A DNA stretch of 64,000 nt from Octopus vulgaris (GCA_951406725.2 OX597829.1:20460001-20524000), one strand, 5' to 3'. Positions 49,638 to 53,672 are shown, numbered from the stretch's first letter. Translations and numbers: made by a program. Notes: generated by a model not told the origin, from the letters alone.

Positions 49638-50101
49638 ATAATAGAAATATTAAAATTACTAACTCTCTCTAAAGGAGATTACGGCAGCGTTACTGGATAT
49701 TAATAGTTATCGCCATACTAATATGGCAGTCTATAAATAAGACTAAAGCTGTCGCTGATTAGCTGCAAGAGGCCATCGCCTCTAGCTAGCTATATGACAC
49801 ACGAACCTGCGTCCATTACAACCTTCGAACAGGAGAGGTCAACCGCTTCACCTTGCTAGTCAGACATCTGCAGACATGTTTCAGGGTTGTTGCCCTTTAT
49901 CAATGCAGCGTAGTCAGAACCAGCAGGTGTCGCTACTGACCGTCTGTTCGAAGATTTTTTTTACTGACCTCCCCTGCTTGAAGGTTGTAATGGACGCAGG
50001 TTCGTGTGTCATATTGCTAGCTAGAGGCGATGGCCTCTTGGAGCTAATCAGCGACAGCTTTAGTCTTATTTGTAGACTGCCATATTAGTATGGCGATAAC
50101 T
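49638..50101. mobile_element. Small fold-back element with hammerhead, (TA)n-flanked
   Basis: 49703-49825 is mirrored at 49980-50101; related to 52870-53672. Confidence 0.8.
49868..49908 (-). ncRNA. Minimal hammerhead ribozyme, U3-A8 variant
   Basis: Minus strand: CTGCA-TTGATAA-AGGG-CAACAA-CCCT-GAAA-CATG-TC-TGCAG. Confidence 0.78.
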
Positions 50102-50192
50102 ATATATATACATATATATATATATATATATATATATATATATTTATATATATATATATATATATATATATATATATATATATATATATATA

Positions 50193-51210
50193 GAGGGGCG
50201 TTCAATAAGTAATGCCCCTGACCCACTTACCATTGCAGTAGGGCAACGAAACTTAGCACAGTTATTAGTATTTTTCTACATAGGAAGCACCCAGAGTTAC
50301 GCATTTCTCCCATCGTTTGATGCAGCTCTGAAGACCGTTTTTGTAGAAGACTCCCAGCTTGTTCCTCCAACCACGACGTGACTTCAGAAATCAAGGCTGC
50401 ATCATCTGTGAAACGCTTTCCTTTCAGAAACAACTTCATGGCTGGGAAGAGGTGAAAATCAGAGGGTTCAACGTCAGGAGAGTAGGGGGGATGGTGAGGA
50501 GTTCATAGCCGCACGCCTGTGCTTCTGATCTGGCGACACGCGAGTTGTGGACCGGAGCGTTGTCCTGCAGGAGGAGAATGCCTTTGCTGATCTTGCCCGC
50601 CTCTTGATTTTGATAGCTTCTCTTAATTTCCTCAAAAGTGAAGCATAATAGGCTCCTGTAATTGTGGTACCCTTTGCCGGGAAATCTGTCATCACTACTC
50701 CGTCCTGTTCCCAGAAGACTGTGAGCATGTCCTTGCCAGCGAAGGGCTGCACCCTTGCCTTGGATCATAGTGATGCACCCTGGATCATAGTGATGGACCC
50801 AGGTTTCATCCTGTGTAATCAGTCTTTTGAAAAATTTTAACTCATCTTCTTGGCACATCTCCAAATTCATCCTTGAGCACTCGACGCGTTCTTGCTTCTG
50901 GAAAAGTGTGAGCAACCTGGGAATCCATCTGGCAGACACCTTTTGCATATGCAAATGGTCATGAATGATAGTTTCCACAGACCCGGTACTAATCTTGACC
51001 TGATGGGCTATTTGGCGAATTGTTATGCGTCGATCTTCCAAAATGGCAGCCTCAACTTGACGGACAGATGCCTCATCAATGGCAGAAGGGGGGTGACCGG
51101 ATCTGGGAGCTGTTTCCACAGAGTTCCGACCATGTTTGTTCCGACAAGAGTTCACGATGCCAGGGTTTTACAAGGTCATATGATGAGGCATCATCACCAT
51201 AAGCTTCAGT
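50193..51210 (-). mobile_element. Mariner transposon remnant (frameshifted transposase, one TIR)
   Basis: SARWIPRLL, ITQDETWVHHYDP, LLQDNAPVH; TA-GAGGGGCGTTCAATAAGTAAT terminus. Confidence 0.88.
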
Positions 51211-51322
51211 AACACCCACCCCCAGTGGCTAGCCACATTCAGATGGCTAGTGCATTTTGTGTTATATATATATATATATATATATATATATATATATATA
51301 TATATATATATATATATATATA

Positions 51323-52725
51323 ATCATCATCATCATCATCATCATCATCGTTTAAACGTCCGTTTTCCGCGCTAGCACGGGTTGGACGGTTCGACCGGGG
51401 TCTGGGAAGCCAGGGGCCGCTCCAGGCTCCAGTCTGATCTGGCAGAGTTTCTACGGCTGGATGCCCTTCCTAACGCCAACCACTCCGCGAGTGGAGTGCT
51501 TTTTACGTGCCACCTGCACAGGGGCCGGGGGGGGGGGTCCGGCATCGGTCACGATCGGTTCGAGCTTTTAACGTGCCAGCGGCACGGGAGCCAGCCAAGG
51601 CGGCGCTGGCAACGTTCGGATGGTCTTACCGGCACAGAGGCCAGTCGGGGCAGCGCTGGCATCGGCCACGTTCGGATAGTACTTTTTATGTGCCACCGGC
51701 ACAGGCATCATAACTCCTATTTCCATTGATATTTATTTCGACGTTCATGTTCATGTACTTGACTCAGCAGGTCTCCTCAGGCACAGCAGGACGATCTGGG
51801 ATCTGGGGTACTTTGAATGGGCAGGGGCTATGTGGAACTGATGCAGGAAGCAGCCCGGGTCTTTGCAGTCACAGCATATCTCCAGAGATCTCGGTCCTTC
51901 GCCATTGCATCAGTGAGGCCCAATGCTCTGAGGTCATGCTTGACTACCTCATCCCATGTCTTTCTGGGTCTACCTCTCCCCCTGATACCTTCAACTGTTT
52001 GGGAGTGGCACTTCTTCACACATCTCTCTTTATCCATCCGCAGCACATGACCATACCATCGCAAGCGTCACTCTTGCACACCACATCTGATGCTTCTTAT
52101 ATCCAGCATTTCTCTCAGGATGCTTACACTCTGTCGTGCGTGCACACTGACACTACACATCCAGCGGATCATGCTAGCTTCATTTCTTTCGTCTACGCAT
52201 GTCCTCTGCAGTCACAGCCCATGTTTCATTACCGTGAAGCATGGCAGTTCGCACACATGCATCATACAATCTACCTTTCATTCTGAGGGAGAGACCCTTT
52301 GTCGCCAGTAGGGGTAGGAGCTTTCTGAACTTTGCCCAGGCTATTCGTATTCTAGTGGTGATACTCTCTGTGCATCCACCTCCGCTACTAACTTAGTCGC
52401 CCAGGTAGCGGAAACTATCAACTACTTCTAGTTTCTCTCCCTGGAGTGTGATGGAATCTGTTTTCTGAGTGTCTGTTGTGTCTATTGCCCCTGTGCATCT
52501 GCCGCACATGAAAGCTATCTTATCTGTTAATTTCCCTTTAATGTTGCTGCACCTCTTATGCGTCCATAGCTTACATTGGGTGCATCTTATGGAGTTTCTA
52601 CCTGTACCTTTCCTACAGATTGAGCAGGGCCACCTACGTGTGTGTGCTGAGTACGCCTTGCTGCTTACTATTACTTTTGGTTTTTGCTACATTTACTCTA
52701 AGGCCCTTTGATTCTAACACTTGCT
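51323..52725 (-). mobile_element. RTE-clade LINE 3' fragment with PHD-like finger, 3' UTR and (GAT)n tail
   Basis: RWYGHVLRM...RGRGRPRKTW...AKDRDLWR; CSICRKG...[12 protein letters not shown]...CGRC; short tail copies at ~22225, 39282 and 53955. Confidence 0.88.
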
Positions 52726-52869
52726 TCCACATATATATATATATATATATATATATATATATATATATATATATATATATATATATATATATATATATTA
52801 TATTATATATTATATATATATATATATATATATATATATATATATATATATATATATATATATTTATAA

Positions 52870-53672
52870 ATAAATTGTTATCGCCATATTAATATGGCAT
52901 TCTTATAGATATAAGAATAATCGTGCCGCTGGTCAGCTCCGTGAGGCCACCGCCATCAAGATAGCTATTGATACACGATCTGTATCCATTATAACCTTCG
53001 AACAAGGGAGGTCAGCCGCTTCACACTGCCAGTCCGACAGCTACAGACGCGTTTCGGGGTATTGCCCCTTGTCAATGTAGCGCAGTCAGACCTGCAGGTG
53101 TCGCCACTGACGTCTCTGTTCGAAGGTTTCTATTTACCTAGTTTCAGTGGAATACATCCACTTGTTTTCAATAATAGAAATATTAAAATTACTAAATCTC
53201 TATAAAAGAGATTACGGCAGCGTTTACTGGAAATTAATTGTTATCGCCATATTAATATGGCATTCTTATAGATATAAGAATAATCGTTGCCGCTGGTCAG
53301 CTCCATGAGGCCACCGCCATCAAGATAGCTATTGAAACTAGGTAAGTAGAAACCTTCGAACAGAGACGTCAGTGGCGACACCTGCGGGTCTGACTGCGCT
53401 ACATTGACAAGGGGCAATACCCCAAAACGCGTCTGTAGCTATCGGACTGGCAGTGTGAAGCGGCTGACCTCCCTTGTTCGAAGGTTATAATGGATACAGA
53501 TCGTGTATCAAGAGCCATCTTGATGGCGGTGGCCTCATGGAGCTGACCAGCGGCAGCGATTATTCTTATATCTATAAGAATGGCATATTAATATGGCAAT
53601 AACAATTAATTTCCAGTAAACGCTGCCGTAATTTCTTTTATAGAGACTTAGTAATTTTAATATTTTTATTAT
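52870..53672. mobile_element. Fold-back element with a hammerhead in each arm, (TA)n-flanked
   Basis: 52872-53145 is mirrored by 53335-53607; extra partial copy at ~53170-53335. Confidence 0.82.
53040..53081 (-). ncRNA. Minimal hammerhead ribozyme, U3-A8 variant (mirror copy 53398-53439 plus has GAAA>AAAA)
   Basis: Minus strand: GCTACA-TTGACAA-GGGG-CAATA-CCCC-GAAA-CGCG-TC-TGTAGC. Confidence 0.8.

Follow-up and report, generated by a model that had tools for sequence, protein, structure and literature searches.

In several natural hammerhead ribozymes the core pair C3-G8 covaries to U3-A8, a variant cited as active in vitro (PMC3088659, Perreault 2011), and in Schistosoma about 1,300 U3-A8 hits were missed by a C3-G8 descriptor (PMC4209133, Cervera 2014). 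Retrozymes are likewise already known, and Penelope-like elements (hereafter PLEs) were called "a strong candidate" for the autonomous mover of those found in animals. As for activity, minimal PLE hammerheads are published as cleaving weakly, and cleavage was absent in 8 of 9 retrozyme dimers from Xenopus, as described in 10.64898/2026.07.22.740005.

We analyzed a window of 64,000 nucleotides from Octopus vulgaris (GCA_951406725.2 OX597829.1:20460001-20524000), counting positions from its first letter. Its surroundings, in a genome of 2.8 Gb, are rich in (TA)n and LINE remnants. An earlier, sequence-only reading of this DNA had highlighted the U3-A8 core and noted that a palindromic stem III permits dimers; natural U3-A8 hammerheads have been published (the two papers cited above), as has the dimer model, and the U3-A8 variant alone is thus not new. 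What the present analysis adds is a PLE footprint on retrozyme insertions and a natural series of core variants. We found no published report of such a footprint, of canonical retrozymes with a U3-A8 core, or of a subfamily with a C3·A8 core, and supplements or repeat libraries may hold families of this kind. A 2017 study by Lunse et al. is said to contain many dimer-cleaving PLE hammerheads and may already list these motifs.

Hammerhead motifs in the window

A descriptor scan of both strands of the window identified three motifs, all with a U3-A8 core, at 49868-49908 (minus strand), 53041-53080 (minus strand), and 53399-53438 (plus strand, with G12A); a sixth stem I pair extends the second to 53040-53081. 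No C3-G8, G3-C8, or A3-U8 motif passed the same scan of both strands. A covariance model built in this study recovered the same three motifs (75, 73, and 63 bits; both intact motifs belong to its training set), and nothing else in the window scored better than an E value of 0.86. The two methods thus agree on the U3-A8 hammerheads and the G12A copy at the places where they had first been noticed.

The motif at 49868..49908 (minus strand) is a type I hammerhead of subfamily A, with a U3-A8 core, the stem II pair A10.1-U11.1, loop 2 CAACAA, and the stem III palindrome ACAUGU; its extended stem I spans 49855-49923, and cleavage is predicted between 49873 and 49872. The type I hammerhead of subfamily B at 53040..53081 (minus strand) has the same core, G10.1-C11.1, loop 2 CAAUA, and the palindrome ACGCGU, with an extended stem I spanning 53028-53095 and predicted cleavage between 53046 and 53045. 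The differences that had been claimed between the two, namely, G-C to A-U in stem I, A10.1-U11.1 to G-C in stem II, ACAUGU to ACGCGU in the palindrome, and U or C at N7, are all present, and the two subfamilies are real, their natural monomers being identical at 309 of 358 aligned positions. The third copy, at 53398..53439 (plus strand), carries G12A at 53424, a CpG site, and is predicted to be inactive. This change occurred in 2 of 41 motifs, which correspond to the window locus and its segmental duplicate; the copy is usable as the inactive control for which it had been proposed, but, being a private CpG change, it does not represent a subfamily.

Rfam hammerhead models had no match in the window, nor on 211 nt at an E value of ≤10, and eight C3-G8 loci of a sister family also lacked a hammerhead match at the gathering score. 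Since the C3-G8 loci are missed as well, the failure of Rfam reflects model coverage and not the U3-A8 pair alone. The statement that a CUGANGA search would miss the motifs holds.

Architecture and covariation

The core nucleotides U4 G5 A6, A9, and G12 A13 A14, the pair A15.1-U16.1, and H17 are present, with G12A in the 53398 copy as the only deviation, and the 3-8 pair is Watson-Crick as U-A instead of the consensus letters C3-G8. As in type I hammerheads, stem I is open, and all three stems are supported by covariation. Stem I consists of 5 to 6 bp, a U(A/G)C / U internal loop, and a distal stem. This continuation through the internal loop into the distal stem had been overlooked in the sequence-only reading.

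Covariation persisted in all three stems when the comparison was extended to 21 subfamily representatives. Nineteen of 21 pairs change on both sides, and 87.8% of the cells were paired, compared to 67% in shuffled alignments and 31 to 43% when the columns were slid; these figures carry no correction for relatedness and come from an alignment in which 17 rows were pre-filtered for pairing in proximal stem I and stem II, while the core columns and the invariant outer pairs of stem III were fixed by the search patterns. Two elements lay outside this selection: (i) the distal stem I, in which 7 of 7 pairs change on both sides, and (ii) the center of the palindrome, where 20 of 21 rows are complementary and each of the four possible palindromes occurs. 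By hand count, about 80 of 100 among the U3-A8 pattern matches listed are palindromic at the free positions, and a palindromic stem III fits the formation of dimers, as had been suggested. One stem I pair, G-C in A and A-U in B, is G·U in a further subfamily, C. The 85-nt hammerhead regions fold with z scores of -3.6 to -4.3; in the fold of the monomer, the core mispairs with the GUC strand with a probability of 0.38 to 0.60.

In all 21 rows, a C precedes stem I and loop 2 ends in A; the position that follows stem I is a U in at least 90%. The same nucleotides occupy the tertiary-contact positions described for the Schistosoma hammerhead (PMC2632901), so that the loop 1/loop 2 contact nucleotides are present at the sequence level. 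This match to the Schistosoma type indicates the canonical type I architecture and not the minimal form of PLEs, and the contact between the two loops would be expected to speed cleavage.

The repeat unit

The motifs sit in repeat units of about 362 nt, a point that the sequence-only reading had missed. Natural units, measured from cleavage site to cleavage site, are 353 to 364 nt long in 20 of 21 cases; the remaining unit, of 410 nt, has an internal duplication. The repeats of the two motifs are dispersed, with 2,201 and 2,391 candidates, of which 40 each were scored, and at loci other than the window they form head-to-tail arrays of up to 5 to 6 units. The longest ATG-initiated ORF measured 21 to 53 amino acids in the four units tested, and the RT and GIY-YIG ORF of an autonomous PLE is absent from the repeat unit. 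The unit folds as a rod with side hairpins (z score of -8.4), and the circular folds of nine normal-length units had z scores of -2.6 to -7.7 (15 shuffles each). The repeat is thus noncoding and dispersed in high copy number, its monomer is strongly self-paired, and loci outside the window contain head-to-tail units within the 150- to 450-bp range with one type I hammerhead each; by these features it qualifies as a non-LTR retrozyme as defined at the sequence level (PMC7229834).

Related families share this architecture. One of them, sister family S, aligns with the window family at 214 of 333 positions, with a score of 23 versus a maximum of -62 in 50 shuffles. Contigs of four runs, which are only guessed to represent RNA, cover the window family; they came without a silent control stretch and were given no weight.

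Insertion ends and target sites

The 3' ends of the insertions fall at two fixed points, about +178 (inner) and +238 (outer) after the cleavage site and hence 60 nt apart. Of 97 insertions, 53 have 3' ends on both outer sides, and the other 44 lack an inverted outer end; since the queries used to choose the loci by similarity end at these points, such proportions are biased, whereas the sharpness of the ends and their pairing are not. The 53 two-armed insertions comprise 42 that combine an inner and an outer end and so carry the tail on one arm only, 1 with two outer ends, none with two inner ends, and 10 that are irregular. (TA)n adjoins 52 of 60 inner ends and 63 of 75 outer ends, versus 10 of 44 5' ends. 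Inverted and tandem 5'-truncated copies occur among the insertions, and the inner breakpoints of the inverted arms are variable.

Both insertions in the window show this pattern. The main arm of insertion A (49638..49964, minus strand) is 5' truncated at 49964 and extends to +237 after the cleavage site, the outer fixed end, where it is joined to (TA)n; it includes the optional tail of about 60 nt (49638..49694, minus strand, +179 to +237). Its inverted 5'-truncated arm (49964..50112, plus strand) covers +31 to about +181 and stops at the inner fixed end, without the tail and again joined to (TA)n. In insertion B, the main arm (52868..53338, minus strand) is a partial tandem of 1.3 units that starts at +72 of the preceding unit and abuts (TA)n at the inner fixed end (+179), and the inverted arm (53333..53672, plus strand) starts at +264, contains a hammerhead, and carries the tail (about 53613-53672) to the outer fixed end (+239), also joined to (TA)n. 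With one hammerhead per strand, neither insertion could release a monomer, and both copies are likely dead ends. Judging from the layout, a transcript across insertion B would pair the inverted arms over the hammerhead.

The pattern is thus that of mobilization by a PLE: the 3' ends are fixed and the optional tail is on one side, 5' truncation varies, partial copies occur both inverted and in tandem, and the target is a microsatellite. The same layout has been described for PLEs (PMC8557442), in which two internal RT starts account for it (PMC11167929). A foldback or MITE-like DNA element, whose hammerhead look would be incidental to a hairpin-rich repeat, appears very improbable to us. Both window copies do resemble long inverted repeats set in (TA)n, and there is the missing Rfam match; however, the mapping of the ends already contradicts such an element, given the variable inner breakpoints, the unequal outer ends, and the 44 of 97 insertions without an inverted outer end, and both head-to-tail arrays and a full core with 3-8 covariation are present.

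The 5' ends vary in position, and the 5 of 181 that lie within 3 nt of the predicted cleavage site do not amount to an excess (P = 0.28). An apparent pile-up of 5' ends at this site was a query-edge artifact that disappeared on remapping. The scatter indicates that the templates ran through an intact hammerhead, either as a circle or as an uncut multimer.

Candidate driver PLEs

In a GIY-YIG search, in which 150 of 6,136 candidates were scored, we found many open frames of 781 amino acids that carry the RT, a CX4CX2C linker, and the GIY-YIG domain and that are of the Neptune/Nematis type by their linker. The seven copies of this PLE that were retrieved share 96.5 to 99.7% identity and have two ends as well as (TA)n junctions. 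Its hammerhead-like motif at the 3' end is U3-A8 with CAUG (1,376 matches; 98 of 100 among those listed). The PLE protein type of the window has 876 amino acids. A second young PLE lies inside the window at 33650-39260; its inverted arms share 99.9% identity, and just one of them bears a tail. This PLE has a C at core position 9 (A9C) in 91 of 100 among the listed of 3,894 matches (hand count). That an abundant PLE spreads with an A9C core suggests that cleavage may be dispensable for spread.

The retrozyme shares no sequence with the PLEs of the window, and a comparison of its DNA with 42 PLE loci returned only adjacent insertions and short AT-rich matches. The 3' ends of PLEs that we saw are AT-rich, have a short stem I, and are unrelated in sequence to the retrozyme. 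Some look-alikes to PLE 3' ends (a CTC-GAG hairpin followed by CTATTAT at the outer end and ATAACAAT at the inner end) were too short to count. Pairs of hammerheads on the same strand, separated by 3 and 6.6 kb, were considered as candidate full-length PLEs and discarded, as no PLE ORF was recognized among the frames of ≥200 amino acids between them; seven long flanking frames that were scanned corresponded to RT, kinase, sulfotransferase, or nothing. In view of the lack of common sequence, it is the footprint from which we infer mobilization in trans: PLE enzymes would copy the retrozyme, and the PLEs above are candidate drivers.

Alternatively, the unit might be the orphaned pseudo-LTR (pLTR) of an autonomous PLE, its solo copies being 5'-truncated insertions that expanded locally as satellites. 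Retrozymes resemble pLTRs in Xenopus (10.64898/2026.07.22.740005), the footprint is that of a PLE, and the search for PLEs scored only the stated fraction of its candidates. We nevertheless regard this origin as quite unlikely on four grounds: (i) on its upstream side, a full unit is bordered by its own 3' part or by an inverted arm, and the arrays, which are dispersed, reach 5 to 6 units; (ii) no stop-free frame of ≥200 amino acids runs on from a unit (140 loci inspected by eye); (iii) the subfamilies evolve as closed units of about 360 nt; and (iv) the PLE 3' ends differ in the respects given above.

Core pair 3-8 in the genome and in sister family S

Genome-wide, the U3-A8 pattern had 4,693 matches versus 220 in the reversed control (net, 4,473), the C3-G8 pattern 2,086 versus 344 (net, 1,742), the C3·A8 pattern 461 versus 126 (net, 335), and the U3·G8 pattern 366 versus 185 (net, 181), counts that mix families and contain nonindependent copies. 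After subtraction of the controls, Watson-Crick 3-8 pairs exceed mismatches by about 12 to 1, again among copies that are not independent. The pattern of the window family had 1,846 matches versus 0 in the control. Since the counts are far above those of the reversed controls, the motifs are not due to chance. The window family thus has at least 1,846 intact cores, with U3-A8 in 100 of 100 among the matches listed, and CUGANGA descriptors miss most of the hammerhead-like motifs counted in this genome.

In sister family S, a hand count of 100 listed of 208 matches gave 50 C3-G8, 37 U3-A8, 13 C3·A8, and no U3·G8 cores. The C3·A8 copies were found at nine loci on five contigs, include one trimer, and have three diagnostic sites in common. 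In trees of 52 and 53 rows computed without columns 3 and 8, C3·A8 and C3-G8 group against U3-A8 (support, 100/99), and C3·A8 forms a group of its own (support, 83 to 85/94). U3-A8 is basal in the tree of this family, the outgroup being a single distant U3-A8 sequence on one long branch. A further column, in which all 24 C3-G8 rows agree and differ from the rest, favors the order U-A, C·A, C-G. A C3-G8 clade was present in 26% of bootstrap trees (p-AU, 0.13) and is thus neither recovered nor rejected, and a viable alternative is that C3·A8 arose from a C3-G8 master through CpG decay of G8. Whichever the direction, the mismatched C3·A8 core has been copied repeatedly. We put forward tentatively, and with more doubt than confidence, that these repeats form a retrozyme superfamily, mainly U3-A8, with direct Penelope integration scars yet no piece of Penelope, in which a replicating C3·A8 lineage is the intermediate of a compensatory switch in the active site from U-A back to C-G.

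Proposed mechanism and whether spread needs cleavage

The reading that we consider probable is that of type I hammerheads with a U3-A8 core in an ORF-less non-LTR retrozyme of about 362 nt with PLE scars, whose tandem transcripts would self-cleave, likely as dimers, and whose monomers likely circularize and are likely copied into (TA)n by a PLE protein acting in trans. The individual steps would be the following. (i) Two palindromes would pair to form a 6-bp stem III, and tandem transcripts would self-cleave, likely in this dimeric state, into monomers. (ii) A host ligase may join the ends of the monomer, in analogy to the retrozymes described in PMC7229834. (iii) The GIY-YIG domain of a PLE would nick (TA)n. 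(iv) Its RT would start internally at +178 and +238 and read through the intact hammerhead. (v) The RT would fall off or switch template at variable points.

A less probable reading, to which we give a minor but appreciable chance, dispenses with cleavage: the repeat would be a nonautonomous PLE passenger copied from uncut read-through transcripts, with a slow or vestigial hammerhead that is not needed for spread. It is in line with the amplified C3·A8 subfamily, the PLE with a changed position 9 in about 3,900 copies, and the published finding that mutation of the hammerhead left insertion in vitro unimpaired (PMC11167929); the missing 5' pile-up at the cleavage site also agrees with it and fits circular templates equally well. 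In contrast, stems, palindrome, and tertiary-contact nucleotides have been kept through double-sided changes across families that are only 64% identical, and the excess of Watson-Crick 3-8 pairs, among copies that are not independent, likewise argues against this reading. The sister subfamilies with U3-A8, C3·A8, and C3-G8 cores offer a natural series in which the importance of cleavage for spread can be examined.

The combination of two ends, a one-sided tail, inverted arms, and (TA)n points at PLE enzymes as movers of retrozymes. This footprint predicts the exact RT start sites, +178 and +238, and the intact PLE ORFs in the same genome, together with a published in vitro assay, make the prediction testable.

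Comparison with known systems

The octopus repeat has in common with the metazoan non-LTR retrozymes (PMC7229834, Cervera and de la Pena 2020) the tandem noncoding units of 150 to 450 bp (350 to 390 in mussel), one type I hammerhead per unit, a strongly self-paired monomer, a GC content below 50%, and co-occurring PLEs; a 2-bp stem III is described there for the axolotl HHR_Amex2. It differs in its core, which is mostly U3-A8, and in the inverted arms, the two fixed ends bearing a tail on one side, and the (TA)n targeting, none of which we found described in that paper, whose main text lacks the word "inverted." Circles, which are predicted for the octopus repeat, were demonstrated in PMC7229834, whose text contains no cephalopod term.

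With respect to the ribozyme, the hammerheads of the Schistosoma Cercyon PLEs (PMC4209133) share the U3-A8 core, the palindromic stem III, and the dimer model. They are described as minimal motifs located in PLE pLTRs, with a 7- to 8-bp stem II, a bulged nucleotide, and a poorly defined loop 1, whereas the octopus motifs have canonical 6-bp/4-bp stems and loop-contact nucleotides and reside in an ORF-less unit. The natural U3-A8 variants in PMC3088659 are rare examples; in octopus, U3-A8 is the majority form under the patterns used, with a traceable switch within a family. The closest match in loop architecture is the Sm-alpha hammerhead (PMC2632901), which shares an internal loop 1 ending in C, a U opening the opposite strand, and loop 2 CAAAUA with its C:A closing opposition, CAAAUA being exact in several octopus subfamilies. 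Differences from Sm-alpha are the single U on the 3' side of the internal loop, the U-A core pair, and a stem III that is a loop-less 6-nt palindrome.

As regards integration, canonical EN+ PLEs (Neptune/Nematis, PMC8557442; Poseidon PAc, PMC11167929) share the partial tandems, the inverted 5'-truncated copy, the optional tail at one end, the microsatellite targets, and the two internal RT starts. The octopus repeat differs from them in having no ORF, a tail of about 60 nt versus 30 to 40, and no homology to the PLEs examined. Finally, Li, Clavereau and Pollet 2026 (10.64898/2026.07.22.740005) also propose animal retrozymes to be nonautonomous derivatives of PLEs. Their argument, as set out there, is based on co-occurrence and pLTR homology in vertebrates, whereas that for the octopus repeat, which has no pLTR homology, is based on an integration footprint in an invertebrate.

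Penelope-like elements and their hammerhead-like motifs

The window contains a young insertion of a Penelope-like element (PLE) at 33650-39260, which comprises an inverted copy with 99.9% identity across 2,224 bp and is flanked on both sides by (TA)n. Only one of its arms carries the tail, namely, the optional stretch between two fixed 3' ends. An 876-amino-acid stop-free frame with reverse transcriptase (RT) and GIY-YIG-like motifs lies on the minus strand (34391-37021), and short copies of the 3' end of this PLE are found at about 13785-14152, 22289-22688, and 61510-61878. Its hammerhead-like motif is present at 39080-39125 (plus), 33830-33875 (minus), and 61585-61630 (plus), and C replaces A at core position 9. 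The corresponding pattern had 3,894 matches genome-wide, and among the 100 of these that were listed, position 9 was C in 91, A in 7, and T in 2. Judged from its sequence, the C9 motif is predicted to be either a core-variant or a dead ribozyme, within a very successful family.

An autonomous PLE family (loci L213 to L219, e.g., G000:C16:20835000-20841000, on the contig of the window) has many intact 781-amino-acid frames, and several copies have a long upstream frame in a different phase. Its hammerhead-like motif (1,376 matches) has U3-A8, a weak stem I, and a GUU or GUA end. The window also holds PLE-like coding remnants with 43% (31583-33493, plus) and 27% (24586-25902, minus) identity to the 781-amino-acid protein.

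Duplication of the retrozyme insertions and other repeats

Near-identical copies of both retrozyme insertions of the window, with the same layout and the G12A core change, were found 254 to 275 kb downstream (loci L005 and L032; G000:C16:20.76-20.79 Mb); the insertions and these copies represent a segmental duplication. Insertions A and B are separated by a broken transposase-like sequence (50200-51250, minus), which we take to be mariner-like; its helix-turn-helix matches were weak and under the cutoff. Elsewhere, an endonuclease/RT LINE fragment sits between two 135-bp tandem arrays (3850-4516 and 7719-8407) that are 99% alike.

Further hammerhead families

The sister retrozyme family S includes a subfamily with a C3·A8 mismatch (L151, L168, and L171 to L177), to which a trimer at G000:C4:80857196 belongs. 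Another abundant U3-A8 motif, of the minimal type, has a bulged nucleotide, a U/A-rich stem II, and a CCGG palindrome. It lies inside an AT-rich repeat (L063, L072, L078, L095, and L096) with two ends and a tail similar to the 3' end of the 781-amino-acid family.
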